Shown: piece after piece, positions 2,291-43,437 of the stretch | Position numbering within the stretch: position 1 is the stretch's first letter | Layout of the letters: every line of letters starts with the position of its first letter | Source: an uncultured Gammaproteobacteria bacterium | GTDB lineage: Bacteria; Patescibacteriota; Patescibacteriia; UBA1558; S5-K13 | Assembly: GCA_964639335.1 (NCBI GenBank) | Contig: CAZXCJ010000002.1 | Span: forward strand, 1 to 48,664 | DNA length: 48,664 bases | Reading direction: 5' to 3' | Made by a program: the position numbers and the translations under genes | The notes under the pieces: model-generated | Told to the model about the DNA's origin: nothing | The model's input: the letters and a program-made list of their open reading frames with translations, nothing else | The model's database searches: none

Positions 2291-4465
2291 TTACTCTAAA
2301 TGCACATCATTAGAAATTTGAGAGATTTTATCCTTAAGTAAAGGATATTTTTTTAATTCTGGGTCTTCGGAAAATATTTTTTCCACCCAGATTCTAACTT
2401 TTTTATTTAATTCTAAATCAGACAAGTCGGCAATCTTAATTTGACTTAAAAATCCAGACTGGGTAGTGCCATAAATATCACCACTGCCTCTAAATTTTAA
2501 ATCAGCTTCCGCTAACTTAAAACCATCATTAGTTTGGGTTAAAATTTCCAATCTTTTTTTGGTTTTAAAGCTAGTATTATCAGTGAATAAAAAGCAAAAA
2601 GATTGATATTCACTACGACCAACTCGGCCTCGAAATTGATGTAAAGAAGCCAATCCAAACCTATCCGCATCTTCAATCATCATAATAGTAGCATTAGGAT
2701 AATCAACGCCTACTTCAATTATTGAAGTAGAAACTAAAATTTTAGTTTTATTATTAGCAAAATTATCTAAAACGTCTTTTTTTTCAGCTTCTTTCATTTT
2801 GCCATGTAAAAAACCAATTTCTAAATTAGGAAAGACCTCATTATTTAATTTTTCATATTCGGTAGTAACTGATTTAACTCCTAATTTATCAGATTCGTTA
2901 ATTAAGGGGCAGACTACAAAAACTTGGTGGCCTTTTTTAATATGATTGTAAATAAATTCGTAGGCCTTAGCTCTGTTTTTTGGTTCAACTAATTTTGTAA
3001 TGATTTCTTTGCGTCCCAGCGGCTTTTCTTTAATTTGAGAAATGTCTAAATCGCCGTAAATACTTAAAGCCAAAGAACGAGGGATGGGAGTAGCGGTCAT
3101 AGATAAAAAATGAGGTGATTTACTGTTTGAGGCGGGTTTTTTTCCGCCAGAGGCGGATCCGCCTCTGGCGGATAATAATTCATGTCTTTGTTTTACCCCA
3201 AAACGATGTTGTTCATCAACAACAATAAGGCCTAATTTTTTAAACTGAATATCTTTTTGAATTATAGAATGTGTACCAATAATGAATTTGATTTCTCCTT
3301 TATTAATTCTTTCAATAAGTTTCTTTTTACTTAATGTTTCGGCCCGCTTCGCCGTAGCTTCAGCGAGGCGAGCTATTTCTTTTTTACCATTATAAACTCG
3401 CCTGTCTTTATTAGTAAAGAGGGCGATAGTGATATTTTCTTTTTTTAGATATTTAATAATATTTTTAAAATGCTGTTTAGCTAAAATTTGAGTAGGAACC
3501 ATAAAAGCAATTTGGTATTTATTTAAAACAGTATTATAAGCAGATATTAGGGCAACGATTGTTTTTCCAGAGCCAACGTCTCCTTCTAATAATCTATTCA
3601 TAGGTACATTTTTTTCTAAATCTTGTAATATTTGCCAAGCAGATTTTTTTTGATCTGTTGTTAATTTAAATGGCAGAGATTGGACAAATTTTTTAATTTT
3701 ATTTTCTTTAAATTCAATTTGTATGGCTTTATTTTTTTGATTATCTCTTTTAATTGATTTGGCCAAAGAAATTAAAATAAATATTTCATTAAAGGCAATT
3801 CTTTTTTTAGCTTGTTTTAATTTTTTTTCATTGTCAGGAAAATGAATTTGTCTAATGGCCTCGTCTAAAACTAATAGATTTTCTTTTTTTCCCGCGAACG
3901 GGATCCCGCTTTGCGGTGATAATATTTCTTGAGGAAGCCATTCTTTTAAAAGATATGTTGCCGGTAAGCAGGTTTTTATTAAATAGCGAATTTGTTTTTG
4001 ACTCAATCTTTCTGTACTGGGATAAATTGGTACAATTCTAGCAGTGTGAGCTGTTTTATTGCTTATTTTTTCATAGGCAGGGCTAACAAAAGAATAACCC
4101 AGCAGGCTTTTTTTAACTTTCCCAGAAATAAATATTTTATCGCCAGGACGGATATTTTTAATAATAAAAGGTTGATTAAACCAAACAATCTGTACTTGTC
4201 CAGTTTCATCTTCTAAAAGGGCTTCAGTAATATTCATGCGTCTGGTTTTGGCTCTTTTATTATTTATCAAACTTATTTTACCCTGAACGGTTGTTGTTTC
4301 ATCGTCTTCTAATTCAGCAATTTTTTTGATTTTAGAATAATCGTCATAGCGAAAAGGATAATAAAAAAGAATGTCCTCGACTTTATTTAAGCCCAATTTT
4401 TGAAGCTTTTTGTAAATACTTGCTCCAATGCCGTAGATTTGATCTAATTTAGTATTTAAGTCCAT
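2291..4465 (-). CDS. recG: ATP-dependent DNA helicase RecG
   Basis: 724 aa with an N-terminal wedge/OB region, Walker A GDVGSGKT, VVDEQHRFG, MTATPIPRSL and HQFRGRVGR. It carries three short GC-rich in-frame inserts (see findings). Confidence 0.95.
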   Translation of the reverse strand: MDLNTKLDQIYGIGASIYKKLQKLGLNKVEDILFYYPFRYDDYSKIKKIAELEDDETTTVQGKISLINNKRAKTRRMNITEALLEDETGQVQIVWFNQPFIIKNIRPGDKIFISGKVKKSLLGYSFVSPAYEKISNKTAHTARIVPIYPSTERLSQKQIRYLIKTCLPATYLLKEWLPQEILSPQSGIPFAGKKENLLVLDEAIRQIHFPDNEKKLKQAKKRIAFNEIFILISLAKSIKRDNQKNKAIQIEFKENKIKKFVQSLPFKLTTDQKKSAWQILQDLEKNVPMNRLLEGDVGSGKTIVALISAYNTVLNKYQIAFMVPTQILAKQHFKNIIKYLKKENITIALFTNKDRRVYNGKKEIARLAEATAKRAETLSKKKLIERINKGEIKFIIGTHSIIQKDIQFKKLGLIVVDEQHRFGVKQRHELLSARGGSASGGKKPASNSKSPHFLSMTATPIPRSLALSIYGDLDISQIKEKPLGRKEIITKLVEPKNRAKAYEFIYNHIKKGHQVFVVCPLINESDKLGVKSVTTEYEKLNNEVFPNLEIGFLHGKMKEAEKKDVLDNFANNKTKILVSTSIIEVGVDYPNATIMMIEDADRFGLASLHQFRGRVGRSEYQSFCFLFTDNTSFKTKKRLEILTQTNDGFKLAEADLKFRGSGDIYGTTQSGFLSQIKIADLSDLELNKKVRIWVEKIFSEDPELKKYPLLKDKISQISNDVHLE
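3131..3171. repeat. GC-rich hairpin module inside recG, kept in frame
   Basis: Contains hairpin ggcgg-gttttttt-ccgcc followed by the perfect 22-nt palindrome ccagaggcggatccgcctctgg. It encodes ...ARGGSASGGKKPAS... in a variable loop just before the MTATPIPR motif. Confidence 0.7.
3891..3919. repeat. GC-rich module inside recG, homologous to the one inside smpB
   Basis: The sequence cccgcgaacgggatcccgctttgcggtga encodes SPQSGIPFAGK. Nearly the same DNA lies at 42940-42989 in smpB and encodes SPQS..SGIPFAGK. Confidence 0.8.
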
Positions 4466-4684: not shown

Positions 4685-4996
4685 ATGGATAAAAAGAAAA
4701 TTTTAGGAATTGTTTTGGTTATTTTAGCTGTAGCATTACAACTTTCAAAAGTTTTACCCCTATGGCTTAATGTAATTATTTTAGTTTTAGGTATAGTAAT
4801 GTTATTGTGTCAATGTAAAAAATGTGTTAAGAAAACAGAGGAAGCACATCCCGCAGAAGTAAAACCAGAAGAACCCAAGATAGAGGAAGAAGTAAAACCA
4901 GAGGAGCCAGCCGAAGATTTTGACAAAGGAGAAATTGCTAAGACCCCAGCAGAAGAAAATGTAGTAGAGGAAGAAAAAGAAGATATTAATATTTAG
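4685..4996 (+). CDS. Small membrane protein with an acidic Pro/Glu-rich tail
   Basis: 103 aa with two N-terminal hydrophobic helices, then a PEEP/EEE low-complexity tail. No family recognised. Confidence 0.5.
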   Translation: MDKKKILGIVLVILAVALQLSKVLPLWLNVIILVLGIVMLLCQCKKCVKKTEEAHPAEVKPEEPKIEEEVKPEEPAEDFDKGEIAKTPAEENVVEEEKEDINI

Positions 4997-5741: not shown

Positions 5742-6209
5742 ATGACTAAGAAAAGAGAAATTTATAAATGTGAAATTTGTGGAAATATTATAGAGATTCT
5801 GCATGTTGGTGTTGGAGAATTAGTTTGTTGTGGGCAAGCTATGAAATTAATGACTGAAAAAACCCAAGACGAAAATCAAGAGAAGCCCGCCGACGCTACC
5901 TCCTTCGATAAATCTTCGGAGGTCAGGAAAGCTTTGGCGGACGGGCATTTGCCAGTTATTGAAAAATTACCAGACAATGTTTGCCGAGGTGGAGATGGAA
6001 TTATTGTTAGAGTCGGAGAAATTGCTCATCCCATGGAGGAAAAACATTATATTGAGTGGGTGGAAGTAAAAACCAAAACTGGTAAAATTGGTAAGCAATT
6101 TTTAAAACCAGGAGATAGTACAGAAATGGAATTTCAAACCAGGGACGATATAGTTGAGGTTAGAGTTTATTGTAATCTGCATGGTTTGTGGGTTAAAAAG
6201 ATTGATTAG
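5742..6209 (+). CDS. dfx: Desulfoferrodoxin (2Fe superoxide reductase) carrying a 20-aa in-frame insert
   Basis: N-terminal desulforedoxin-like CEICGN...VCCGQAMKLM, and a C-terminal neelaredoxin domain with HLPVIE, HPMEEKHYIEW and CNLHGLW. Confidence 0.9.
   Translation: MTKKREIYKCEICGNIIEILHVGVGELVCCGQAMKLMTEKTQDENQEKPADATSFDKSSEVRKALADGHLPVIEKLPDNVCRGGDGIIVRVGEIAHPMEEKHYIEWVEVKTKTGKIGKQFLKPGDSTEMEFQTRDDIVEVRVYCNLHGLWVKKID
5886..5945. repeat. 60-nt GC-rich module inserted in frame in dfx
   Basis: Codons 49-68 (PADATSFDKSSEVRKALADG). The DNA shares ccgataaatcttcggagg and tcaggaaagct.tggcgg with the intergenic island at 43305-43437. Confidence 0.8.
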
Positions 6210-11077: not shown

Positions 11078-11237
11078 GAATTATTCTCCCCCTCCTCCCC
11101 TTAATAAGGGGAGGTGTCCCGCGGATGCGGGACGGAGGGGTAGGGGAGACACAGCCTGCCTGCGCGTAGCAGAAGCTACGCTTCGGTCGCCGACGTGCCA
11201 AAGCCACTTTGGCGACGGCACGCGAAGGTAGGAGGGG
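11078..11237. repeat. Mosaic GC-rich hairpin island (modules A-B-C)
   Basis: A chain of hairpins: cccctcctcccctt-aataa-ggggagg, cccgcggatgcggg, gcgcgtagcagaagctacgc, and gtcgccgacgtgccaaagccactttggcgacggcac. Modules recur in reverse orientation at 27165-27312 and 38082-38140. Confidence 0.85.
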
Positions 11238-11282
11238 TTATTTGTACGAATGGTACGAATTTAAAACAATTAAATATTAAAA

Positions 11283-15544: not shown

Positions 15545-16984
15545 ATGACTAGATATATGAAAGAATTTACTATCAATAAAATTAAAGAAGATTTGGAAAA
15601 TAAAATTTTCTCCTGCCAAGAACTAGTGCAGAATTTTTTAATTAAAATTGAAAAAGATAAATTAAATGATTTTATAAATTTATTTGCCGAAGAGGCCGTA
15701 GCTCGGGCCAAGAAGATTGATTTAAAAATTAAGGCCGGTAAAAAATTGGAGCAATTAGAAGGTATTCCCATTGCCATTAAAGACAATATTCTAATCAAAG
15801 ATAAAATAAGTACTGGCGCATCTCATATTTTAGAAAATTATATAGCTACCTATGATGCTTATGTAATAGAAAAATTGCAGGATAAGGGAGTTATTTTTTT
15901 AGGAAAAACAAATTTAGATGAATTTGCTATGGGGACTTCTAATGAAACTTCTTATTTTGGTCCAGTTTTAAATCCGCATGATAAAACAAGAGTTCCGGGC
16001 GGTTCTTCTGGTGGTAGTGCGACAGCAGTAGCTAGCCATCATTGTGTTTTTGCTTTGGGAAGTGATACGGGCGGTTCTATTCGTCAGCCGGCTGCCTTTT
16101 GCGGAGTAACTGGATTTAAGCCCAGTTATGGTCGAATATCTAGAAATGGGCTGATGTCTCTAGCGTCTTCCTTAGATCAAATTGGCCCCCTGACTAATTC
16201 CGTGGAAGATGCCCTTGTTGTTTTTAACTCTATTTCTGGAAAGGATCATCATGACATGACAAGTCAAGAATCAAATTTAATTGATTTAAAAAACATAAAA
16301 AAAGATATTAAGCAGAAAATTATTGGAGTACCTAAAGATTATTATGATTTAAGCATTGATCAAGAAATTAGAAATAATTTTCAAAAAACCATAAATCAAT
16401 TAAAAAATGCAAAAGTTAAAGTTAAAGAAGTTGATTTATCTTTTTTGGATGCTGCTTTAGCAGTTTATTATATAATTCAGCCCGCGGAGGCCTCAACTAA
16501 TTTAGCTCGATATGACGGACTGCGTTATGGTTTAAATCAAAATCACGGCAAGGATTTATTAGAGGTTTATCTAAAAAATAGAGGAGAGGGCTTTGGTCAA
16601 GAAGTAAAAAGAAGGATTATGATTGGAACTTATGTTTTGTCCGAGGGTTATCGGGATGCTTATTATAATCAGGCCAAAAAAGTTCAGCAAGATATTAAAT
16701 ATAGATTTAAAAAAATATTTCAAGATGTAGATGCTATTATTTTACCTACCACACCTAGCATGGCATTTAAATTAAAAGAAAAGTTTAACGACCCCCTAAC
16801 CATGTATCTTTCTGATATTTTTACGGTCGCCATTAATATATCCGGTTTGCCAGCCATATCTATTCCCACTGGCCAGAGCAATAATTTACCAATCGGCACT
16901 CAAATTATTGGAGATTTTATGCAGGACGAAAAGGTTTTAAACATTGCTTATAATATGGAGAAGTTAGGCGTTAGTAGATACTAA
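15545..16984 (+). CDS. gatA: Asp/Glu-tRNA amidotransferase subunit A
   Basis: Amidase signature GGSSGGSATAVA, plus IPIAIKDN and GSDTGGSIRQPA. gatB is not adjacent. Confidence 0.95.
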   Translation: MTRYMKEFTINKIKEDLENKIFSCQELVQNFLIKIEKDKLNDFINLFAEEAVARAKKIDLKIKAGKKLEQLEGIPIAIKDNILIKDKISTGASHILENYIATYDAYVIEKLQDKGVIFLGKTNLDEFAMGTSNETSYFGPVLNPHDKTRVPGGSSGGSATAVASHHCVFALGSDTGGSIRQPAAFCGVTGFKPSYGRISRNGLMSLASSLDQIGPLTNSVEDALVVFNSISGKDHHDMTSQESNLIDLKNIKKDIKQKIIGVPKDYYDLSIDQEIRNNFQKTINQLKNAKVKVKEVDLSFLDAALAVYYIIQPAEASTNLARYDGLRYGLNQNHGKDLLEVYLKNRGEGFGQEVKRRIMIGTYVLSEGYRDAYYNQAKKVQQDIKYRFKKIFQDVDAIILPTTPSMAFKLKEKFNDPLTMYLSDIFTVAINISGLPAISIPTGQSNNLPIGTQIIGDFMQDEKVLNIAYNMEKLGVSRY

Positions 16985-17102
16985 AATGTATAATGATGTA
17001 TAATGTATAATGTATTATGTATTATGTATAATGTATAATGATGTATAATGTATTATGAATTATGAATTATGTATAATGTAATAATTTAACAATATAATAT
17101 CT
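16984..17102. repeat. Degenerate tandem repeat (TGTATAA/TGTATTA, period 7-8) filling the gatA-dsbA spacer
   Basis: atgtataatgatgtataatgtataatgtattatgtattatgtataatg... runs up to the ATG at 17103 and contains many overlapping TATAAT boxes. Confidence 0.85.
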
Positions 17103-18780: not shown

Positions 18781-19158
18781 ATGAGTAAAAAATATTTAAC
18801 AATAGATGATATTAGTTCTTATAAGATTGCTTATGATTTATCTAATTATGTTTGGAATGTTGTTATTAATTGGAATTATTTTGCCTTAAAAACTATTGGT
18901 AATCAATTTGTAAGATCTATTGATTCTATATCTGCTAATATTGCAGAAGGTTTTGGGAGATATAATAAAAAAGAAAAGATTCATTTTTATCGTTATAGTC
19001 AGGGTTCGATTATTGAATCAAAAGATTGGAATGCAAAAGCAAGGGCAAGGTCTTTATTAAAAGATGAGGAGGATCAATATATCTGTGATAAATTAACTAA
19101 GTTGCCAAAGGAAGTTAATACTTTGATAAAATTTACTAGAGATAAGCTTTCGGAGTAA
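18781..19158 (+). CDS. Four-helix-bundle protein of the 23S rRNA intervening-sequence / Avd family (orphan copy)
   Basis: SIDSISANIAEGFGRYNKKEKIHFYRYSQGSIIES matches the family core (..siaaNIAEG.gR.s.kef..Fl.iA.GS..E). Confidence 0.8.
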   Translation: MSKKYLTIDDISSYKIAYDLSNYVWNVVINWNYFALKTIGNQFVRSIDSISANIAEGFGRYNKKEKIHFYRYSQGSIIESKDWNAKARARSLLKDEEDQYICDKLTKLPKEVNTLIKFTRDKLSE

Positions 19159-19300
19159 ACTGTTAAACTGTTAAACTGCTAAACTGCTAAATTGCCAAAT
19201 TGCCAAATTGCTGAATTTTAACAATATAACCATTTAACCATTTAACAATATAACCATTTAACCATTTAACAATTTAGTAACCATTTAACCATTTAACCAC
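19157..19300. repeat. AT-rich tandem word repeats (AAACTGYT, AAATTGCC, AACCATTTA; period 8-9)
   Basis: The repeats fill the whole spacer between stop 19158 and ATG 19302. The AAACTGCTAAATTGCC flavour also precedes the 18781 gene. Confidence 0.85.
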
Positions 19301-19301
19301 T

Positions 19302-20015
19302 ATGGACAAAAAATTTATAGTATTGATAATCGTAATTTTATTAATCGCCGTCGTATATATAATAGTAGGTGATTTGAAAAAAACAAAAGAAATAGAGGTT
19401 GTAAAAGAAAGCGCTATTGAAGAAGCTGAAGAAGACATTGATTCTACTATCAATTATTTTAATTCCCATTATAATTTTTCTGTAGATGTGCCGATAGGTC
19501 TTAAGTATTGTTTAAATGATTTTTGTGATGATAGTGCTCAAGATAAAGATGTTAATTTTAAAATTACAGCTTATAATTTTTTAGAGTATCAAAATATTGA
19601 GATTACTGAAGAAATTTCAACATATCCATATTTAGAAATAAGACCTCGTAAAAATTTACTTGGTATGTCGGCAATTGATTTTGCTAAGCGTTCTCTTGAT
19701 TTTAACCGAAAATATAGTAAGAATTTTAAGGACACATATTCACAGGAAGAAAAAATTGTATTTGCTGGTGAAGATGCCTATTCATTTATTGCTGAGAAAG
19801 GTTTTGAGGAAAGGGGGGCTTTGGTTGATGACGAGGGGGCAAAGGATTCTCCAAAATTTTATGAAACCGCTGGGGAAGGCACCCTTTTAGAATTACCTCA
19901 TAAGATAATTTATTTGGATCATGATGGCATTATGTATCGAATCATATATCCAATTGAAAATGAAATAGCAGTGGATATTATAGATTCGTTTAAATTTATT
20001 GAACCTACTGAATAA
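19302..20015 (+). CDS. Hypothetical N-terminally anchored protein
   Basis: 237 aa with one N-terminal TM helix and no recognisable motif. Confidence 0.5.
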   Translation: MDKKFIVLIIVILLIAVVYIIVGDLKKTKEIEVVKESAIEEAEEDIDSTINYFNSHYNFSVDVPIGLKYCLNDFCDDSAQDKDVNFKITAYNFLEYQNIEITEEISTYPYLEIRPRKNLLGMSAIDFAKRSLDFNRKYSKNFKDTYSQEEKIVFAGEDAYSFIAEKGFEERGALVDDEGAKDSPKFYETAGEGTLLELPHKIIYLDHDGIMYRIIYPIENEIAVDIIDSFKFIEPTE

Positions 20016-20040
20016 TATAATTATATATTAGTTTTTCAAC

Positions 20041-20210
20041 TTAAACTGTTAAACCGTTGAACTGTTGAACTGTTGAACTGTTGAATTGTTTTAAATTGCT
20101 TTAATAATTTAGTAATTTATTCTAACCATTTAACAATTTAACCATTTAACAATTTAGTAACCATTTAACCATTTAATAACAATTTAACAATTTAGTAACC
20201 ATTTAACAAC
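20041..20210. repeat. AT-rich tandem word repeats (AACTGTTG period 8, then AACCATTTAACAATTT period 8-9)
   Basis: cttaaactgttaaaccgttgaactgttgaactgttgaactgttgaattg ... aaccatttaacaatttaaccatttaacaatttagtaaccatttaacc... Confidence 0.85.
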
Positions 20211-20338
20211 TTAATATAAGAAGGAAAAGCGATTTATTCACCAGTCAGAGATTTTGTCTTTGACATAATGTATTAACTTAAGGGCCGTATTTTTGCGGTC
20301 CTTTTTAATTTAATGAAAACAACCCATGGAGGTTTAAG

Positions 20339-23316: not shown

Positions 23317-24591
23317 TTACATATCTTTTCTCAAAGCGAGGATTGGGTCCATTTTAGCGGCTTTGCGGGCTGGGAAAACTCCAAAAACTAATCCAGACAA
23401 AATGGAGAAACTAAAAGCAATAATTAAGCCAATTAAAGGAATAACTAATTTCCAGTCTAAGCCATAATAATTAGCTCCGATTGAAATTAATAAAGCAATT
23501 AAGATTCCCAGAACTATTCCTACTAAAGCTCCAATTAAAGCGATAATTATAGCTTCAATTAAAAATTGCCACAAAATGTCTTTTTGTTTAGCGCCAACGG
23601 CTTTACGCAAACCAATTTCAAAAGTTCTTTCACTGACAATAACATACATGATGTTCATAATGCCTACTCCGCCGACAATTAGAGAAACGACAACTATAGC
23701 CAAGAGAAGCAAGGTGATATAAGCAGTTATTTCATCAACCATAGACATCATTTCTTCCATGGTATAAACCACAAAGTCATCTTTGGCAGTATCAGCCTCG
23801 GGATTATTAATATCGTGATTTTCGCGTAATAAAACCCTAATATCTTCAGCAGTTTGGTCGGCCAAAGACAAATCTTCTATTTGATGAACCATGTACATTA
23901 AATAATCAATGCCCATAATTCTTTTTTGCAAAGTGCGAACAGGAATATAAATATATTCATCAAAGTCAACGCTCATTACTGCCCCCCTTTCTTCCATAAT
24001 TCCAATAACTTTATATTTAGATTTTCCTAATTTAATAAACCTTCCTAAAGCGTCAGAATCAGCAAAAAGCGTTTCTTTAACCTTTGAACCTAAAACCACT
24101 ACTCGCGCCAAAGATTTATCTTCTCCTGCGGTAAAAAATCTTCCTTGAGCAACTTCACTTTTATCTATATTTATATAAGCGGGACTAACTCCAAATAAAA
24201 ATATTTTTTTTCTTTTGTTTTCATGAGTAGCCAATTCTTGACCCATGATTCCGCCATAACCATCTAGGACATTGGGTAACTTAATAGCATCTTCAACATC
24301 ATCTAAAGTCAGAGTAGTTATTTGCACTCCTTGGGCCATAGCAGTGGCGGTCTCCATATCACTAGTACCACCCTTTTTGCTTTTTTCTGGAATACGCACT
24401 TCGCTTTCTATAATATCAGTTCCAAAAGATTCTACCTGTTGGACAATTAAATTTTTAAATCCCTCTCCAGCAGAAAAAACAACCATGATGCTGGTTACTC
24501 CGACAACCATACCTAAAATAGTTAAAAAAGTTCTAGTTTTATTATTTTTAATTGATTGCCAAACGATTTTTAAAGGAGTTTTTAGGTTCAT
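23317..24591 (-). CDS. ABC transporter permease, MacB/FtsX family (copy 2)
   Basis: N-terminal TM helix, a large extracytoplasmic MacB_PCD-like domain and a C-terminal FtsX 3-TM bundle with EIGLRKAVGA. Confidence 0.9.
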   Translation of the reverse strand: MNLKTPLKIVWQSIKNNKTRTFLTILGMVVGVTSIMVVFSAGEGFKNLIVQQVESFGTDIIESEVRIPEKSKKGGTSDMETATAMAQGVQITTLTLDDVEDAIKLPNVLDGYGGIMGQELATHENKRKKIFLFGVSPAYINIDKSEVAQGRFFTAGEDKSLARVVVLGSKVKETLFADSDALGRFIKLGKSKYKVIGIMEERGAVMSVDFDEYIYIPVRTLQKRIMGIDYLMYMVHQIEDLSLADQTAEDIRVLLRENHDINNPEADTAKDDFVVYTMEEMMSMVDEITAYITLLLLAIVVVSLIVGGVGIMNIMYVIVSERTFEIGLRKAVGAKQKDILWQFLIEAIIIALIGALVGIVLGILIALLISIGANYYGLDWKLVIPLIGLIIAFSFSILSGLVFGVFPARKAAKMDPILALRKDM

Positions 24592-24664
24592 TTTTATTAA
24601 ATTGTTGAATGGTTACTAAATGGTTAAATTGTTAAATGGTTAAATGGTTAAATGGTTAAATTGT

Positions 24665-24722
24665 CGAAGATCCCGAGTTTATCGAGGGATCGAAGACCCT
24701 GAGTGGGTGAAACGAATCGAAG
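24665..24722. repeat. 58-nt GC-rich insert, identical to 39762-39819, flanked by 11-bp direct repeats GGTTAAATTGT
   Basis: cgaagatcccgagtttatcgagggatcgaagaccctgagtgggtgaaacgaatcgaag. The direct repeats are at 24654-24664 and 24723-24733. Confidence 0.85.
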
Positions 24723-27089: not shown

Positions 27090-27164
27090 AATCGCTTTTC
27101 GTTAATGATTGGCTTTTTATATTAACCCCTCCTGCCTTCGTCCCTCAACAAGTTCGGGACTACG

Positions 27165-27312
27165 GCAGGCAGGCTGTATCTCCCCTACCCCTCCGTCCCG
27201 CATCCGCGGGGCACCTCCCCTTATTAAGGGGAGGAGGGGGAGAATAATTCTAATTAACTCCCTCATCCCCTGTCTTCGCCGAAGCGTAGCTTCTGCTACG
27301 CGCAGGCAGGCC
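27165..27312. repeat. Mosaic GC-rich hairpin island (modules A and B, reverse orientation, rearranged)
   Basis: 27169-27250 is approximately the reverse complement of 11078-11160, and 27275-27312 of 11150-11195, but here the two are separated by a spacer. Confidence 0.85.
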
Positions 27313-27539
27313 AGCCCTTCTCCCTCGACTTCGAAGGAGAAGGGAGTTTATCCCGTAAAGTAGCAAAGCTACTAACGGGATTTACTCGTAGAGTTATTAA
27401 TGTAATAAATAATTTTCAAACATTACAAGTATTAATAGATATTCAAGTAAGTGCCCCTCTCTGTCGAGCTTAGCTCGATGGAGAGAGGGTTAGGGGTGAG
27501 GGGAGAATAATTAATTAAAAGCTAAAAGCCGATAGCTAA

Positions 27540-29430: not shown

Positions 29431-29802
29431 CTATTCATCATTTATTGTTTTAATATCATCTTCTATTTTCATACATACGCCTGCAATATTTTCCAAAATT
29501 TCATTATTTAAAAATCTAATTACTTTAATATTTAAAGAATTAAAATATTGAGTTCTCTTTTTGTCATATACTATGCTTTTTTGCTCTAAGTGTTGACTAC
29601 CGTCTAATTCAATAACTAATTTTAATTCTGGACAGTAGAAATCTACAATATATGGTCCAATACCGTGTTGTCGTCTAAATTTGTAATTAGTAAAATCTTT
29701 ACCTTTTAATATGCACCAAAGTTTAATTTCTGCTAAAGTCATGTTATGACGAAGTTTTTTACGGGTAGTTTTATATTTTTTTAAGTTATGTACTGTTCTC
29801 AT
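29431..29802 (-). CDS. DUF559 endonuclease-like protein (Vsr/restriction-endonuclease-like fold)
   Basis: LRHNMTLAEIKLWCILKG...YKFRRQHGIGPYIVDFYCPELKLVIELDGSQH is shared with the ORFs at 34131 and 41885. Confidence 0.85.
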   Translation of the reverse strand: MRTVHNLKKYKTTRKKLRHNMTLAEIKLWCILKGKDFTNYKFRRQHGIGPYIVDFYCPELKLVIELDGSQHLEQKSIVYDKKRTQYFNSLNIKVIRFLNNEILENIAGVCMKIEDDIKTINDE

Positions 29803-30158: not shown

Positions 30159-30259
30159 ACCCCGTTAGAAATTTAGGTTTTAGCGGGAATACAAAATTAA
30201 ATTAAATATAAATATGGACAAGAAAAATAACACAATCAATAAGGGCTTTCTAACGGGGT
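30159..30259. mobile_element. 101-bp MITE-like element with 13-bp perfect terminal inverted repeats ACCCCGTTAGAAA, enclosing the start codon of the DGR target gene
   Basis: Arms lie at 30159-30171 and 30247-30259. The interior shares atacaaaattaaattaa with the ligA-proximal copy. The ATG at 30214 lies inside the element, and the right arm encodes FLTGF. Confidence 0.65.
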
Positions 30260-33200
30260 TTAAAAATAAAAAATTAATTGTATTTTTAGCGGTAATTGTT
30301 GTTTTAATTATTGGTTTTGCAATTGTAAGCGCTACCGGTGGTTTTGGATTTTTTGGTGTTTCAGCTCCAAGTTCAGGTGGTGGATTAGTGGGGTATTGGA
30401 GCTTAGCGGAGTCAGACCTCTACGATACAGATATATTTCAAGACCTTAGCGGTAATGGAAACAATGGAACTTCTGCTAATACTCCTGTTTATGTATCTGA
30501 CCAAGCAGGTGTTCCTAATCAAGCAATGACTTTTAATGGAACTACTGATGCAGTTAATTGTGGAAGTGGAACTACTATTGATGACATTTTTGATTCTGGT
30601 GGAACTGCGAGTGCTTGGATAAATCCGAGTAGTGATGGGGAAGGAGGTTATGGAAAGATATTCAGCAAATGGACTGGTTTTTCTTTTGATACCAGAGAAG
30701 AATCTGGGGGAGATGTAAAAATTAGTTTTAATTATGATTTTGATGGTGCATCAGATGGTCGTTGGGCAACTGCAACAGCAATAATTCCTATAAATACTTG
30801 GACACATATAGCAGTTAATTATGATTCTGATGCAGCTGCTAATAATCCTACTTTTTACATAAATGGTGTTCCTTATACTGTTGCAAGTGGATTAACAGAA
30901 GCACAGACTCCCATAGGGACAAGAGTTTCAGATGCTGGAGCAACTTTATATTTAGGTAATAATGCTGCTACTGTTTTTACCTTTGACGGCTCTATCTCTG
31001 ACGTTATGCTATTCTCTTCAACCCTCACAGAAGACCAAGTTAGACAACTTTATTTATCTGGTAGGACTACTGCGAGAATAAAAGTGGATGCGAGGGAGTT
31101 GATTACTAATGGTGATTTCGCTACTGATAGCGATTGGGATAAAGCTAATGGAGCAACAATAGCTGGTGGTGTAGGTATATTAGATAACACAAATGCATCA
31201 TCTTTGTCTCAAACAGGCATAATAGTTGTTGGAAAAAAATATTTATTAAACTATGAAGTAGTATCAACAGATTTGTCTGGTGGAACATTTAGGATAAGTG
31301 GAATGGAAACGACAGCACTTACAAATGCTGTTGGAAAATATAATAGGGTTATTACTGCTACTGGGACATATTTACGATTTATTGCTTTTGATAATACTTC
31401 TGGAACTTTGGAATTAGATAACATTTCAATAGTAGATATAACAAACGCTATTACTCCTAAACTCCAAAAAGGTTTAATACTTGATATGCCTTTGAATAGT
31501 AGATATACAGAAGCAGGAAGTGGACTTATAACTGGTGATGATTCAACATTTGATAGTGATACTGGAAATTGGACTAAAGGAACTGGATGGACTATTGGAG
31601 GTAATGTTGCTTCTTGTAGTGGAGCTCAAAGTGCTTATAGTAATTTATTATATGCTGATATTTTAACATTAGGACATAGATATTATATAACGGCAGATAT
31701 CACAAGAACAGCTGGAACTATGTATGTTAAAGCTGGTACTAGTGGTAATTACGAAACAATAACTTCTAATCAAAGTATAGCATTTATTTCTACTGCTACT
31801 GGTAATGATGATTTATATTTTCAAGCAAATGCAGATTTTATTGGAACTGTTGATAACATAATAGTAAAAGAACTTGACGGCATAACTAAAGACCGAACCC
31901 CACAAGGAAATGATGGAACAGTAAGTGGAGCTACAATTAAATATGATGGGTTAGTAAATGCTGGTGCTGGTATTGCTTATATAAATCAAGACAAGGCTTA
32001 TGGCACTTTTGAATTTTCGGTTAATAAAGGAGCTGATGGAAATTTACATTATACTGAATTTATTGCAGATTCAAATGATAAAAGTGGAGATGGTTATTTT
32101 TTTTATGTATCTAATACTGAAGCAGTTAGATTGTATAGAAGGGATGATGGTTCAGGTACGATAATAATGTCGTCTGCAGATTCTTATGTAACAATAAACA
32201 CTGATTATCGTATTAAAATAACTCGTTCTCTCGCTGGTGTATTTACTGTTTACATCAAAGGTGGTGCTTTTGGTTGGGATGATTGGACAACTGTTGTGGC
32301 TGATAGCGGTTCTAATCCTGTTACAGATAACACTTATACAACTTCAAATTACTTAGTAGCAGACCTTGATAGTGGCGACACAATTTCTAATCTCAAAATA
32401 GATAGTAAAAGAATAAGTCTAGCAGGTGCAGTTCAAAGCACAGGGACTTGGACATTAACAGGAGACGCTTATGATTTTGATGGAACAGATGATTACATCT
32501 CAATAACTGACACAGATGATTTAAGTTTTGGAGATGGGACAGATGATAATCCTTTTTCAATAAGTAGCTGGGTTTATATAGACGATGCTACTAATTTTAA
32601 TATAATAAGCAAGGGGATTTATAATACCGACGGGGAATGGAGATTTTATTCAGGAGCAGATGATAAAGTATATTTTCAGTTTTATGATGAAAGTGTTGCT
32701 GATACTTATGTAGGCAGAATGTTTAATACCGCTTTAACTGAAGGAGAATGGGTTTCTTTAATCGCAACTTATAGCGGAGACAGCACTAGTGATAGTAATT
32801 CATTTTTTCAAGATGGAATTAAAATTTATTTAAATGGCAATAGAGCAGACAATACTGACGTTGAATCAGGAGCTTATGTGGCAATGGAAAATCTTGACCA
32901 TAATGTATGGCTGGGGAGATATAATACAGATTATGCTAATGGTCAAATAAGAGATATTAAAGTTTATAATAGAGTATTAAATAGTGGAGAAATTCAGTCA
33001 TTGTCAGAAAATTACACAGATTGTCCGTCAGATATGGTATGGGTAGATTATGCTTGGACTTGGCAATCAACTACTTGGAGTAATAGGGGCGGATTTTGTA
33101 TTGATAAATACGAAGCTTCAAATGGCGGAGGAGCTTATTATGTTGATATAAATGGCGACGGTGATATTCTTGATACAGCGGTTGATGTTTATGGCGATGG

Positions 33201-33852
33201 CACTACTTTTAATGAGACCACAGCAACCGCAAAAGCAGTTTCAGAATATAATGCTAATCCTTGGATTTCTATCAATCAAGTAAACGCCAAGGCAGCTTGT
33301 TTAGCCGCGGGCAAGCGTTTAGCCACAAATTATGAATGGCTTTTAGCTTCAAAAGGAACGCCCGATCCGCATACTTCAGTTCCTGCCACAGGCACAGAGT
33401 CCTGCCAAATATGGAATACTGGTGCTTGGCCTGATTATTCAGGGAAGAAACCAGATGGTTCTACTTGGACAGATAGTCCAGCAGGAACAAATTCTATAAA
33501 GACAGGCACTGCTGTTAATTGCGTTTCAGATGCAGGAGCTTATGATTTAATCGGCAATGTTTGGGAATGGACTGATAATGTAATCAATGGAGGGCTTCAT
33601 CCTGTTACTGGTGCTGCTTTGCCTGCTCAGAGTTATATCACTGGTTTAGATGTTTATGGTATCCCAAGTTCTACTGGTTCAGCTACCACTAATTATAATT
33701 ATGACCATTTTTGGATTAACGCCGTTGGTTATCGTGGCTTCATCCGTGGCGGCATTTGGGATCTTGGTTCGGCTGCCGGCCTCTTTGCCCTGCACCTCAA
33801 CTACGCTCCGTCCATTACGAGCTTCACCCTTGGCTTTCGCTGCGTCCGCTGA
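30214..33852 (+). CDS. DGR target protein: membrane-anchored, multi-LamG/lectin-like protein with a C-terminal FGE-sulfatase/C-type-lectin-fold variable domain
   Basis: 1212 aa with an N-terminal TM helix. LamG-like modules are present (MTFNGTTDAVNCGS...WTHIAVNYD...LYLGNN...FDGSISDVMLF; FDGTDDYISI...WVSLIATYSG...VWLGRY...IRDIKVYNRVL). The C-terminal CLec fold shows FCIDKYEAS, RLATNYEWLLASKG, YDLIGNVWEWTDN and RGG.W....GFRCVR. The last 118 nt are the VR. Confidence 0.9.
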   Translation: MDKKNNTINKGFLTGFKNKKLIVFLAVIVVLIIGFAIVSATGGFGFFGVSAPSSGGGLVGYWSLAESDLYDTDIFQDLSGNGNNGTSANTPVYVSDQAGVPNQAMTFNGTTDAVNCGSGTTIDDIFDSGGTASAWINPSSDGEGGYGKIFSKWTGFSFDTREESGGDVKISFNYDFDGASDGRWATATAIIPINTWTHIAVNYDSDAAANNPTFYINGVPYTVASGLTEAQTPIGTRVSDAGATLYLGNNAATVFTFDGSISDVMLFSSTLTEDQVRQLYLSGRTTARIKVDARELITNGDFATDSDWDKANGATIAGGVGILDNTNASSLSQTGIIVVGKKYLLNYEVVSTDLSGGTFRISGMETTALTNAVGKYNRVITATGTYLRFIAFDNTSGTLELDNISIVDITNAITPKLQKGLILDMPLNSRYTEAGSGLITGDDSTFDSDTGNWTKGTGWTIGGNVASCSGAQSAYSNLLYADILTLGHRYYITADITRTAGTMYVKAGTSGNYETITSNQSIAFISTATGNDDLYFQANADFIGTVDNIIVKELDGITKDRTPQGNDGTVSGATIKYDGLVNAGAGIAYINQDKAYGTFEFSVNKGADGNLHYTEFIADSNDKSGDGYFFYVSNTEAVRLYRRDDGSGTIIMSSADSYVTINTDYRIKITRSLAGVFTVYIKGGAFGWDDWTTVVADSGSNPVTDNTYTTSNYLVADLDSGDTISNLKIDSKRISLAGAVQSTGTWTLTGDAYDFDGTDDYISITDTDDLSFGDGTDDNPFSISSWVYIDDATNFNIISKGIYNTDGEWRFYSGADDKVYFQFYDESVADTYVGRMFNTALTEGEWVSLIATYSGDSTSDSNSFFQDGIKIYLNGNRADNTDVESGAYVAMENLDHNVWLGRYNTDYANGQIRDIKVYNRVLNSGEIQSLSENYTDCPSDMVWVDYAWTWQSTTWSNRGGFCIDKYEASNGGGAYYVDINGDGDILDTAVDVYGDGTTFNETTATAKAVSEYNANPWISINQVNAKAACLAAGKRLATNYEWLLASKGTPDPHTSVPATGTESCQIWNTGAWPDYSGKKPDGSTWTDSPAGTNSIKTGTAVNCVSDAGAYDLIGNVWEWTDNVINGGLHPVTGAALPAQSYITGLDVYGIPSSTGSATTNYNYDHFWINAVGYRGFIRGGIWDLGSAAGLFALHLNYAPSITSFTLGFRCVR
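33733..33850 (+). other. DGR variable repeat (VR)
   Basis: Ungapped 118-nt match to 35110-35227. There are 14 mismatches, all at TR adenines, and it ends at the stop codon. Confidence 0.92.
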
Positions 33853-33895
33853 ACCCCGTGAGATAGAGCTCGCAGAGCTCGCTATCTCACGGGGT
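33853..33895 (+). promoter_or_regulatory. Strong hairpin immediately 3' of VR (candidate DGR target-recognition cruciform)
   Basis: accccgtgagatag / ctatctcacggggt form a 14-bp stem, with an inner 6-bp GAGCTC stem and a 3-nt loop. It starts 1 nt after the stop and is followed by GTGAAGGGG. Confidence 0.7.
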
Positions 33896-33960
33896 GAAGG
33901 GGTTTAAGATTTTAATCTATAATCTAAAAATCTGATATTTAAATTACCTCACCCCAATTC

Positions 33961-34110
33961 GCCTCACCCCAAACCCCTCTCCATTTTTTTAAGAAAAATA
34001 GAGAGGGGCACAGGCAAAATGTCGTTATAAAATATTTAGTACATTAATTAATATTCGAGTAAGCGCCTTTCTCCTTCAGGGTCGAGGGAGAAGGGATGGG
34101 GATGAGGGAG
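33961..34110. repeat. About 150-bp two-hairpin repeat element, copy A (upstream flank of DUF559)
   Basis: gcctcaccccaaacccctctccatttttttaagaaaaatagagaggggca ... ctccttcagggtcgagggagaagggatggggatgagggag. Homologous to 34481-34640. Confidence 0.7.
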
Positions 34111-34130
34111 TCCATAGGATAAAAATATTT

Positions 34131-34481
34131 ATGACCAAAAAAGAAAAAATATATATTGCTAGAAAATTTAGAAAAAATCAAACTACAACCGAACAAATAA
34201 TTTGGGAAAAATTAAGAAATAGGCAATTAATGAATTTAAAATTCAGAAGACAATATTTAATAGAAGGATATATAGTTGATTTCTATTGTCCAAAGTTGAA
34301 ATTAACTATAGAAATAGATGGACCGATTCATTCAAGACAGGTTAAAGAAGACAAACAAAGACAAAAAGACATAGAAGAAAAAGGAATAAGATTTATTAGA
34401 TTTAAAAATAAGGATGTGCGATATAATCTTAAAGAAGTATTAAAAAAATTAAGAGTGTTTATTAAAAAAATAAGTAAATAG
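34131..34481 (+). CDS. DUF559 endonuclease-like protein inserted between the DGR VR and avd
   Basis: RKNQTTTEQIIWEKLRNRQLMNLKFRRQYLIEGYIVDFYCPKLKLTIEIDGPIHS. Confidence 0.85.
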   Translation: MTKKEKIYIARKFRKNQTTTEQIIWEKLRNRQLMNLKFRRQYLIEGYIVDFYCPKLKLTIEIDGPIHSRQVKEDKQRQKDIEEKGIRFIRFKNKDVRYNLKEVLKKLRVFIKKISK

Positions 34482-34640
34482 CCTCACCCCAAACCCCTCT
34501 CCATTTTTTTGAGAAAAATAGAGAGGGGCACATACCTAATCTGTTTATTACTGTTTGTAAATATTTATGTGTAATTAATGGATATACAAGTAAACGCCCC
34601 TCTCCTTCAGAGTTGAAGGAGAGGGGGTTGGGGGTGAGGC
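34481..34640. repeat. 160-bp two-hairpin repeat element, copy B, with about 22-bp terminal inverted repeats
   Basis: Starts gcctcaccccaaacccctctcc and ends ggagagggggttgggggtgaggc. Internal hairpins are cccctctcc-att..-agagagggg and cccctctccttca-gag-ttgaaggagagggg. Its first base is the last base of the DUF559 stop codon. Confidence 0.75.
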
Positions 34641-34681
34641 AGAGATTAACAGTGCGTGAAATTACAAAATAACATTTATGC

Positions 34682-35029
34682 GTGAAAAATATGCTCTATG
34701 ATTTAACAATTTTCCAAAAAGCTTATGATTTTCTGTTATGGATAAAGCCGACAGTTCAAAGATTTACTAAAGTTCATAAATATAGTTTGGGGATTGAATT
34801 AGAAAAAGAAACAATAGAGCTTTTAAAACAGATTGTAAGAACCAATTTTAAAAAGGATGATAGAAAAAAGGACATAGAAGAGTGTTTTGTTCATTACGAA
34901 ATAATTAAGATTTTAATTAGAGTATCCAAAGATTACCATCTTTTGAATTTAAAGCAGTACGAGTTTGCCTCTCAAAAATTAGACGAGATAGGTAAATTAC
35001 TTGGTGGTTGGTATAAAAAATTTTCATAG
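34682..35029 (+). CDS. avd: DGR accessory variability determinant (Avd-like four-helix bundle)
   Basis: About 112 aa and basic. KAYDFLLWIKPTVQRFTKVHKYSLGIELEKETIELL...LGGWYKKF fits the Avd / 23S-IVS family, and it is positioned immediately 5' of TR. The likely start is the ATG at 34691. Confidence 0.8.
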   Translation: MKNMLYDLTIFQKAYDFLLWIKPTVQRFTKVHKYSLGIELEKETIELLKQIVRTNFKKDDRKKDIEECFVHYEIIKILIRVSKDYHLLNLKQYEFASQKLDEIGKLLGGWYKKFS

Positions 35030-35050
35030 CTATCTATTTTATTTAGATAG

Positions 35051-35082
35051 ACCCCATTAGATAATTTCATATCTAACGGGGT
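35051..35082 (+). promoter_or_regulatory. Hairpin 28 nt upstream of TR, related to the post-VR hairpin
   Basis: accccattagat / atctaacggggt form an 11/12-bp stem with an 8-nt loop, followed by GTGAAGGGA. The post-VR hairpin is followed by GTGAAGGGG. Confidence 0.65.
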
Positions 35083-35109
35083 GAAGGGATTAAATCAATA
35101 AGTGGCACG

Positions 35110-35227
35110 CGTGGCTTCATCCGTGGCGGCAATTGGAATAATGGTTCGAATGCCGGCCTCTTTGCCCTGAACCTCAACAACGCTCCGTCCAATACGAACA
35201 ACAACATTGGCTTTCGCTGCGTCCGCT
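35110..35227 (+). other. DGR template repeat (TR)
   Basis: Intergenic 118 nt rich in AAY codons. In the VR frame it reads RGFIRGGNWNNGSNAGLFALNLNNAPSNTNNNIGFRCVR. Confidence 0.92.
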
Positions 35228-35426
35228 TCAGTGGTTATTATAATAAACTTGCTAGAATTTCTATTCTTTATGTAGATAGAGAGAGAGCACTATAAACCCC
35301 AGATTTTATTCCTTTTTTCTGTTTTAGAATTGCAGGGGAAAAATATTAAGGCTTTTGGGATTGGCTTGTATTAGTAATTTTTTTGAGTGAAAATTCAGGT
35401 CAATCCGCCGAGTCTTTAAAATTAAA

Positions 35427-42629: not shown

Positions 42630-43151
42630 TTAAATATGTAATTTATATTTTTGATCAAGTTTTCTTTTTAAATCCTTTTTTTTCATATCTTCTCGCTTGT
42701 CATATTTTTTCTTACCGCTGGCTAAAGCAATTTCTATTTTGATAAGATTGTTTTTAATAAAAATTTTAGTGGGTACAATGGCATAGTTTTTTTGATTAAG
42801 GAATGTTTTTAATTTTATAATTTCTTTTTTGTTTAATAAAATTTTTATATCTCTGCCTGGTTTATGTTTGATTGTATTTAGATTTGATTTTTTATATTTG
42901 GGAATTTTTATATTTGTTAAATAGGCCTGATTATTTTTTCCCGCAAACGGGATCCCGCTTGTCCCGCTTTTGCGGTGGCTCTGCGGTGATATTTTAATAA
43001 AAGAACCATCTAAATTTATTTTTTGACTTTTGATTGATTTAACTTCATCACCGAATAAAATCATACCAGCTTTAAAAGTTTCTTTAATTTGATAAAGGTG
43101 GTTTATTTTTTTATTTAGAGCGACAATTTTATTTTCAGGTTTTTTAAGCAT
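42630..43151 (-). CDS. smpB: SsrA-binding protein SmpB carrying an in-frame GC-rich insert
   Basis: NKKINHLYQIKETFKAGMILFGDEVKSIK...ILLNKKEIIKL...IEIALASGKKKYDKRED plus a basic C-tail. Confidence 0.9.
   Translation of the reverse strand: MLKKPENKIVALNKKINHLYQIKETFKAGMILFGDEVKSIKSQKINLDGSFIKISPQSHRKSGTSGIPFAGKNNQAYLTNIKIPKYKKSNLNTIKHKPGRDIKILLNKKEIIKLKTFLNQKNYAIVPTKIFIKNNLIKIEIALASGKKKYDKREDMKKKDLKRKLDQKYKLHI
42940..42989. repeat. GC-rich module inside smpB (homologue of 3891-3919 in recG)
   Basis: cccgcaaacgggatcccgcttgtcccgcttttgcggtggctctgcggtga encodes SPQSHRKSGTSGIPFAGK. Confidence 0.8.
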
Positions 43152-43304
43152 ATATTTAGTATATAGTATATAGGAAAAAGTATAAAGGTTGCCTTGTTAA
43201 ATAATATTATTAAAATGATAATTTTAACCTGTTAAATATTATCTAAAATGATAATTTAACAGGTTTAACAGGTTTAACAGGTTAAATAGGGTAAAAAATT
43301 TAAA

Positions 43305-43437
43305 GTTGCCCTCCTGCGCTACCACCTACGTTAAAACTTCCTCCTCCGATAAATCTTCGGAGGATAAATCGGAGGTCAAGAAAGCTACGGCGGGCCACGT
43401 TTGACGTGGCAGGCAGGCAAGTTGCAAGGTGGGTGTG
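43305..43437. repeat. GC-rich hairpin island (long version of the dfx insert)
   Basis: ...cctcctccgataaatcttcggaggataaatcggaggtcaagaaagctacggcgggccacgtttgacgtggcaggcaggc... Confidence 0.8.

Follow-up and report, generated by a model that had tools for sequence, protein, structure and literature searches.

Translated selfish DNA that survives in essential genes is known mainly from Rickettsia and mitochondria. The present analysis concerns short GC-rich palindromic patches in two genes, recG and smpB, of a 48,664-nt contig (CAZXCJ010000002.1; this whole stretch of 48.7 kb is referred to as the window) from a Patescibacteria genome, and leads us to regard these patches as probable selfish elements, that is, tiny palindromic DNA insertions that cannot move by themselves and have become dispersed in this AT-rich genome and its relatives. 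Two kinds of described elements are of particular relevance. The Rickettsia palindromic elements (RPEs) measure about 150 bp, form ten families and are often found in frame in unrelated genes (PMC10969869). The GC-rich hairpin elements of mitochondria are 17-84 nt long, comprise double and triple hairpins as well as composite nested clusters, and vary mainly in their loops (PMC4478555; PMC2800124); they include the yeast GC42 cluster (42 nt), which is associated with an AG target duplication (PMC4478555), as well as the double-hairpin elements of Allomyces and the hairpin elements of sponges, which exceed 70% GC, lie in nad and rRNA genes without flanking duplications and are kept in transcripts (PMC2800124). 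[quoted passage not shown]

The window has a GC content of 32%, contains about 100 short GC-rich islands and shows a bacterial gene context (recG, smpB, tmRNA, type IV pilus genes and a diversity-generating retroelement, DGR). The identities of recG (2291-4465, minus strand; 724 aa; RecG_wedge, DEAD, Helicase_C and RecG_dom3_C domains) and smpB (42630-43151, minus strand; 173 aa; Pfam match in two stretches) were confirmed by Pfam, PDB alignments and orthologue alignments (24 orthologues in the case of RecG); the original prediction had placed the patches correctly to within 1 nt, and its translations EILSPQSGIPFAGKKE and KISPQSHRKSGTSGIPFAGKNN were right. RecG has a baseline length of 693 aa in close relatives (24 close sequences), and the 31-aa excess of the window protein is due to three inserts (724 = 693 + 10 + 10 + 11). 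Insert 1 (3890-3919, minus strand; 30 nt) encodes SPQSGIPFAG and reads, in gene sense, TCACCGC-AAA-GCGGGA/TCCCG-TTCG-CGGGA (slashes mark junctions or insertion points throughout); as aligned DNA, these 30 nt correspond to (A)TCACCGCAAAGCGGGATCCCGTTCGCGGG(A) between GAAATATT and AAAAAA. It was present in two of the 24 close RecG sequences, the window protein and P0122, and its site was empty (GAAATATT/AAAAAA) in L009 and L010 and filled by a diverged copy in L008. Insert 2 (3341-3370, minus strand) is a 30-nt GC-rich single hairpin, CGCCTCGCTGAAGCTACGGCGAAGCGGGCC, encoding RLAEATAKRA, with a folding energy of -20 kcal/mol (z = -3.4); none of the 23 other close RecG sequences carries it (empty site ATAGCT/GAAAC). 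Insert 3 (3143-3172, no strand assigned) is a perfect 30-nt palindrome, TCCGCC-AGA-GGCGGA/TCCGCC-TCT-GGCGGA, which encodes SARGGSASGG, follows GAATTATTA in the DNA alignment and folds with -28.8 kcal/mol (z = -6.5). Its site is empty in L008 and L010 and shows a net gain of 33 nt when the neighbouring linker change at 3134-3142 is included. Inserts 2 and 3 were both unique to the window protein (n = 24), and the empty-site gaps in recG against close orthologues measured 30, 30 and ~33 nt.

The insert in smpB is longer (42939-42989, minus strand; 51 nt) and encodes SPQSHRKSGTSGIPFAG, the window SmpB having 173 aa vs 156-157 aa in its relatives. The 51-nt gap was clean against L001 and L006 (empty site ATTAAAAT/AAAAAA), and the SmpB proteins P0003 and P0004, 86-87% identical to that of the window, are devoid of exactly the 17 inserted residues. 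All four patches fall in alignment gaps against solved structures: the RecG inserts are missing from every solved RecG structure in the PDB alignments, and SmpB shows the 17-residue gap against each solved SmpB structure. Orthologues 79-87% identical display clean empty sites for the recG and smpB patches, whose lengths are multiples of 3 nt and which contain no in-frame stop codon. The alignments with SmpB P0003 and P0004, with the 24 RecG sequences and with the solved structures thereby identify the segments as lineage-specific insertions that are not ancestral, and the reading frame is preserved in both genes, in line with what had been proposed from the DNA letters.

The basic unit of the elements is a 15-nt hairpin, TCC-SSS-loop-SSS-GGA, and two abutting units form a 30-nt double hairpin joined at GGA/TCC. 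Family A, TC(A)CCGC-NNN-GCGGGA/TCCCG-TYYG-CGGGA, includes recG insert 1 (short form) and the smpB insert (long form); family B, in which TCCGCC-NNN-GGCGGA is present twice over, includes recG insert 3; recG insert 2 and two units in the desulfoferrodoxin (Dfx) gene are further 30-nt hairpins. The three patches of recG, taken in the original prediction as three inserts of one kind, are all real hairpin insertions; they are not one element, however, since they belong to family A, to its sister family B and to an unrelated hairpin. When the window was scanned without bias for 30-nt hairpins that are strong and GC-rich, five were detected in its ORFs, all of them the inserts described here, and 35 in the 14.5 kb of non-ORF window DNA. 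Both A and B have GGATCC at their centre (three of the four GGATCC sites in the window lie within A or B elements), and CGGGATCCCG resembles a synthetic linker, features that would fit a cloning or assembly artefact made of BamHI-linker-like palindromes. We find this hardly credible, and the data contradict it: insert-bearing RecG and SmpB are each encoded on eight contigs from several sources, diverged copies occupy the same sites in L004 and L008 (other samples), and further copies were recovered from numerous shotgun assemblies made independently of each other (JGI, ENA) and, where they are genic, always lie within continuous ORFs.

The patches of recG and smpB are copies of the same element in the same orientation, as had been claimed. 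The 21-mer CCCGCRAACGGGATCCCGCTT occurs at exactly two sites in the window, 3891 and 42940, both on the plus strand, and the two copies share their orientation relative to the minus-strand recG and smpB genes. In 100 dinucleotide-preserving shuffles, this 21-mer was never matched, even with up to three mismatches, and the local alignment between both patches scored 39, compared with 20.2 ± 1.8 (maximum 26) for the shuffled-query null. The smpB insert shares its termini with recG insert 1 and is longer by a 21-nt hairpin nested inside loop I. The 51-nt form was found again in a glycosyltransferase gene of L151, indicating that the long form, too, is a variant that has become dispersed. Two copies from a single Komeilibacteria metagenome-assembled genome (MAG) fold like the one in smpB, with a constant hairpin II and a differing nested hairpin in the loop of hairpin I. 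Diverged copies are found in relatives: the smpB site of L004 holds one in which the stem of hairpin II changed from CC to TT with the frame intact, and SmpB P0002 also holds one. Insertions recur independently as well: the distant SmpB P0059 carries a 78-nt composite, B-type unit first, in the same loop as the A copy of the window, and recG of L009 carries the palindrome family of insert 3 (TCCGCCAAAGGCGGATCCGCCCCCGGCGGA) in the same frame three codons further downstream, which, judged from the aligned sequences, is most simply a second, independent insertion. Other relatives carry 36-, 45- and 33-nt lineage-specific inserts in RecG, mostly hairpins too.

Two loops, one following motif II in RecG (window aa 431-450) and one at window aa 54-72 in SmpB, appeared as recurrent insertion hot spots, where lineages differ in the hairpin insert carried at the same position or a few codons away (P0123, P0124, P0139, P0059; L009, L177, L178, L179). 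Just downstream of recG insert 3 (3119-3142; aa 444-451), the linker reads KKPASNSK in the window and KKSALEQ in P0364, a member of the same species cluster, and the window recG has an extra CCCGCC by this insert, which pairs with the palindrome's GGCGG end. Local rearrangement around the insert may thus still be going on.

Element A is dispersed well beyond the window. Metagenomes and genomes were scanned with exact-match patterns, which makes the census blind to variation in the stems and biased towards well-kept copies, so that stem conservation is not measurable from it. The metagenome scan returned 48 element A copies on 46 contigs; the 49 distinct copies considered below come from public contigs after deduplication and include those of the window and its relatives, although some near-duplicate loci among them may represent one insertion event in related genomes. 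The scan of the genome collection with an 18-nt core returned mostly chance matches in high-GC genomes, and only its matches in AT-rich contigs were usable; among the matches listed, species-representative genomes with copies and matching flanks were MAGs that carry the labels Komeilibacteria, Saccharibacteria and Patescibacteria group. The taxon labels of MAG contigs may be wrong, and the coverage of the source genome corresponds to the 48.7-kb window. No copies of element A were found in the viral contig collection, so nothing there points to a phage vector.

About 29 of the 49 copies lie in long ORFs and about 20 in non-coding DNA. In other genomes, element A is in frame in some 20 unrelated genes, mostly with housekeeping functions: those of TrmD, valyl-tRNA synthetase (ValRS), a class-I aminoacyl-tRNA synthetase, ClpB, adenylate kinase, MreC, PrmC and a SpoU methylase, together with genes for a Mur ligase, GT4 glycosyltransferases, Wzy ligases, a P-type ATPase, a radical-SAM enzyme and a XerC-like recombinase. 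Compared with solved structures, a TrmD loop has a net gain of ~14 residues, and adenylate kinase one of 8-10. The coding copies are read as SP[QR]SGIPFAG, ITAKRDPVRG or HRxAGSRSRE in the three sense frames and also in two antisense frames (~23 sense vs 6 antisense), the only closed frame being the antisense one that reads TGA. The shared frame and orientation of the recG and smpB copies is accordingly the commonest case (frame 0, ~14 of the 29 coding copies) but no rule, given that the coding copies make use of five frames out of six. The use of three sense and two antisense frames indicates that the peptide is not what is conserved. Similarly, the inserts are all multiples of three, as had been noted, but this is built into the element and is not a product of selection: 38 of the 49 copies are exactly 30 nt long, and 30 nt also predominates among the non-coding copies.

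The predicted structures are consistent with the original expectation that the inserts sit in surface loops. In the SmpB model, internal pLDDT (predicted local distance difference test) values below 50 are confined to residues 58-71 (bar 149-151), within the insert, in a loop between the strands 51-54 and 76-79. RecG inserts 2 and 3 coincide with discrete coils of pLDDT below 50 (363-377 and 433-447), and insert 1 lies within a low-confidence linker (136-201); in both models, the inserts are predicted to be located in loops. The coding long forms are all 3n (51 or 48 nt), and variants of 31 and 33 nt were found in non-coding DNA only, which supports, as far as these small numbers go, that the inserts are translated rather than removed from the RNA; the predicted junction-spanning peptide is ...EILSPQSGIPFAGKK....

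It might be argued that these protein loops are ancient or adaptive, SPQSGIPFAG and SARGGSASGG having been selected as peptides. Frame 0 is indeed the commonest one and the inserts are fixed within species, but almost no close orthologue and no solved structure contains the segments, about 20 of the 49 copies are non-coding, and the inserts are modelled as low-confidence coil. One DNA sequence read in five frames into unrelated peptides directly contradicts selection for a peptide, and we consider this explanation very improbable.

The insertions occur preferentially at T-rich/A-rich junctions. In the flanks of the A copies (n = 49; mean flank GC 39%), whose composition is strongly non-random, T was present at positions -4, -3 and -2 in 23, 30 and 34 copies and A at -1 in 29 copies, followed by A at +2 and +3 in 39 and 32 copies, which gives the target consensus TTTA/NAA. 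Four empty sites fit this consensus (...TTA/AAAAA..., ...ATA/AAAAA..., ...TCT/AAAA...). There was no target duplication in 27 of the 49 copies, and the 1 nt shared by both sides in another 11 is possibly due to chance; nor is a duplication seen at the empty sites of recG and smpB. Five copies are flanked by direct repeats of 7 or 14 nt, such as GAAACAGGCGACAA (ClpB) and GCGAAAAGCGAAAA (TrmD). Several A copies were located exactly between the units of heptamer arrays (L131, L135, L145, L152, L155).

A second feature of the insertions is nesting, which is best illustrated by the desulfoferrodoxin gene (5742-6209), whose inter-domain linker carries a 60-nt insert (5886-5945, plus strand) that encodes PADATSFDKSSEVRKALADG and is present in none of the solved Dfx structures. 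It consists of two nested 30-nt hairpins, an outer one (5886-5897 plus 5928-5945) and an inner one (5898-5927). Three states of this site were found: empty (GAAAAA/CAT) in L182, with 30 nt in L181, and with the nested 60 nt in the window, where the second unit was inserted at GCT/AAAG within the loop of the first. The outer unit of L181 has drifted towards AT with the frame preserved. The inner unit is also related to an intergenic GC-rich module (43337-43395, plus strand; family D20), with 25 of 27 positions matching at 43337-43363 (score of 44 vs 22.6 ± 2.0 for the null); this match is the statistically sound tie between coding inserts and intergenic modules. The link that had been proposed through recG insert 2 was not sustained in the same way: insert 2 and the intergenic modules do have 9-12-mers in common, as had been noted for gaagctacg, but the score of 24 was not above chance (19.6 ± 2.1, maximum 27), and insert 2 gave no significant match elsewhere in the window by local alignment against the shuffled null.

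It is also conceivable that each hairpin arose locally, through faulty replication or repair (fold-back or template-switch synthesis at breaks), in which case the hairpins would not be copies of a mobile family. The inserts of recG (insert 2), P0124 and P0139 are unique lineage-specific hairpins with no known second copy, and short templated inverted insertions are documented at yeast DNA breaks (PMC11724301). Nevertheless, fold-back copies derive from local sequence, AT-rich in this genome, and cannot give the same 30-51-nt GC-rich element in many genes and genomes; the similarity of the Dfx insert to the intergenic module would also be left unexplained. De novo formation is therefore improbable.

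Unit hairpins of both families are also present between genes: A-type hairpins at 11117-11132 (TCCCGC-GGAT-GCGGGA, plus strand), within a large intergenic GC-rich module that has its inverted copy at 27165-27250, and at 39278-39292 (TCCCGC-TTA-GCGGGG, plus strand), and a B-type hairpin at 39845-39860 (TCCGCC-AGTT-GGCGGA, plus strand), with a partial second copy at 42542-42555. The large intergenic modules (11078-11238, 27124-27333, 38077-38161) share near-identical inverted segments (11078-11163 vs 27165-27250, 98%; 11169-11232 vs 38080-38143, 97%; 11154-11186 vs 27279-27311, 100%) and fold as nested hairpins; the same spacers consist of a few bases in the syntenic contigs L009 and L010.

Insertions are thus precise and recurring, one family is found in many genes and in non-coding DNA with a target preference and with nesting in loops, and the reading frame is retained as the stems decay. 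The alternative that deserves most attention is that the element is a functional nucleic-acid signal, either a site for a host protein or a hairpin for RNA processing or stability, its coding copies being by-products. This would fit the near-identical stems over distant lineages, in contigs of 25-59% GC, the conservation of the two-hairpin architecture with variable loops and nested hairpins, the few copies per contig and the palindromic flanks (TTTA...NAA). On the other hand, nothing in Rfam overlaps the elements even at E<=1 (the gathering-score matches in the window were tRNA-Asp and tmRNA only), the T-run 5' and the A-run 3' of the hairpins are the reverse of an intrinsic terminator, and the elements have arrived cleanly at unrelated positions, essential genes included, in both orientations. 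Moreover, stem pairing is lost in older copies, and the stem conservation of the census is partly forced by the exact-match pattern. We therefore judge a functional signal unlikely.

More specific candidates were rejected: a CRISPR repeat, as there are no arrays; a DNA uptake sequence, given the low copy number and the origin of copies by insertion and not by point mutation; an intrinsic terminator, with TTTA 5' and NAA(A) 3' of the hairpins on either strand; and a product of DGR retrohoming, as there is no homology to the template repeat (TR) or variable repeat (VR) of the DGR.

Several observations weigh against the interpretation of the patches as selfish elements. The inserts of every member of the species-level clusters (90% identity) are identical, without recent polymorphism, and no ongoing mobility was seen directly in these clusters. 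There are only 1 to 4 copies per contig, unlike typical high-copy MITEs or repetitive extragenic palindromic sequences (REPs). Copies identical at 29-30 of 30 positions in contigs of 25-59% GC from different classes could mean functional constraint, and the census, as stated above, favours well-kept copies. The five copies flanked by direct repeats are not explained by a single, duplication-free mode of insertion. Finally, Pfam searches detected no mobilising gene in the window (~30 ORFs), where DUF559 and GIY-YIG nucleases were all that came up, or beside the copies (L153 cassette), where the cassette between the inverted copies contained ordinary genes only, and no related insertion sequence (IS) or transposase was found within the window and L153.

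The elements lie at T-rich/A-rich junctions, usually without duplication, and insertion into the loop of an earlier copy generates the long forms and the composite GC-rich modules. If they are selfish, as we favour, the inserted element would be read as a disordered loop, whose hairpin later decays with the frame maintained. Coding copies would survive because 30 nt equal 10 codons, stop codons are rare (the GC-rich palindrome being stop-free in five of six frames) and the A-run target is often a lysine-rich loop; A-runs in the genes of an AT-rich genome would often be lysine codons in exposed loops. Movement would presumably occur in trans, by an enzyme acting on hairpin or cruciform DNA. One candidate is a HUH/Y1 transposase (REP-RAYT-like) that would be coded elsewhere in the genome; another is the repair of breaks introduced by DUF559/Vsr-like and GIY-YIG nucleases, whose free-standing genes abound in the window. 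A broader and more speculative proposal, which we hold only tentatively, is that a trans-acting enzyme common to Patescibacteria, and perhaps to other phyla, inserts 30-nt units at TTTA/NAA and into the loops of earlier units. If true, an undescribed insertion system working in 30-nt steps builds the GC-rich intergenic modules and keeps remodelling the surface loops of essential proteins. The five simple inserts of the window, all exactly 30 nt in spite of unrelated sequences, would then point to a measuring of length instead of selection for 3n.

The elements resemble the RPEs in that a palindromic repeat is found in frame in unrelated genes and also in non-coding DNA, in a reduced AT-rich bacterial genome, with inserted peptides seemingly compatible with fold and function, and with no known transposase. 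Unlike RPEs (~100-150 bp, with a conserved peptide per family, in Rickettsia), they measure 30-51 nt, are read in five frames and belong to Patescibacteria (hosts judged from the names on related proteins and MAGs); they are also far GC-richer than the host genome and built of 15-nt hairpin units, the comparison being one of descriptions and not of sequences. The parallel drawn in the original prediction consequently holds for behaviour only, including the in-frame presence in ~20 unrelated genes, and the elements are not members of the Rickettsia families, given their size and the different phylum.

The closest structural match is provided by the mitochondrial double-hairpin and GC-cluster elements, which are also short GC-rich (double) hairpins in very AT-rich genomes, mostly intergenic but also intragenic. 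The elements described here differ in being on a bacterial chromosome and not in fungal or sponge organelles, and differ from yeast GC42, to which they are likened by architecture and not by sequence, in that the target TTTA/NAA usually undergoes no duplication in place of the AG duplication. Some features are shared with REP/REPIN sequences: imperfect palindromes of 20-40 nt, single or as inverted pairs in larger modules (L153), non-autonomous and without target duplication; as in REP/REPIN-RAYT systems, the hairpin as single-stranded DNA would be a plausible substrate. REPs are extragenic by definition, possess a conserved 5' GTAG-type motif and are accompanied by a RAYT gene. By contrast, ~60% of the present copies (~29/49) are in genes, the GTAG motif is absent, and the sequences examined contained no RAYT gene, nor was there any Y1_Tnp match among the window ORFs (48.7 kb). 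Like intragenic ERIC (enterobacterial repetitive intergenic consensus) and the enterobacterial RU elements, they are small non-autonomous repeats able to fuse in frame with ORFs; unlike MITEs, which are usually 50-500 bp with IS-derived terminal inverted repeats and target-site duplications, they have 30 nt, are palindromic over the whole element and are mostly duplication-free.

The literature searched contained no description of such elements in Patescibacteria or the Candidate Phyla Radiation (CPR). The finding would carry the phenomenon of translated selfish DNA to the CPR, a large section of bacterial diversity that is still little understood, and would account for many short loops confined to single lineages, and for many GC-rich islands, which hamper alignment, annotation and structure prediction in Patescibacteria. 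To our knowledge, the way in which mitochondrial GC clusters and double-hairpin elements move has never been resolved; a 30-nt element with a sharp target consensus and with empty, single and nested states offers a tractable system, which could make hairpin movement testable. The insertion sites also mark permissive loops (in RecG, SmpB, TrmD, ClpB and adenylate kinase), with a possible use in protein engineering.

The contig L153, whose gene content is unlike that of the CPR (HemD/CobA, DprA, an AMP-binding enzyme), harbours four A copies in 11 kb; at 3200-3400 and 4700-4800, A copies lie within ~90-nt inverted modules that bracket a DUF2752-SCP2-HU cassette.

The nucleases mentioned above are free-standing genes in GC-rich intergenic islands: three DUF559/Vsr-like genes (29431-29802, minus strand; 34131-34481, plus strand; 41885-42238, minus strand) and one GIY-YIG gene (40308-40592, minus strand). 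The DUF559 gene at 34131-34481 is flanked by direct repeats (33956-34101 and 34476-34632) and occupies another slot of the DGR locus than in L001, which suggests that it is a mobile, homing-endonuclease-like cassette. The segment 27065-27131 is 94% identical to the 5' region of another DUF559 gene (42208-42274), with no ORF following.

The DGR itself is complete (30214-36725) and comprises a target gene (30214-33852; Laminin_G_3 and a FGE-sulfatase-type C-terminus) with its VR (33733-33850), followed by a GC-rich hairpin (33855-33896), bAvd (34682-35029), the TR (35110-35227) and the reverse transcriptase (RT) gene (35427-36725); all 14 mismatches between VR and TR are at TR adenines. The RT gene carries a larger composite insert of 171 nt (57 codons) in frame (36007-36177, plus strand), with the GC-rich hairpins CCCCGTCAGCTTGCTGCGGGG and CCAGAGCTTGCTCTGG. 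In L001 and L003, the RT gene lacks this insert (site between GATTCTT and ATTCTGAG); in the window, the RVT_1 Pfam match is split in two.

The window also contains tandem arrays of 7-8-nt units (TAAACTGT, TAACCATT, TGTATAA and similar), which are intergenic and often directly 5' of start codons (295-329, 16982-17083, 19148-19311, 20034-20221, 24590-24671, 39722-39776 and 43250-43300).

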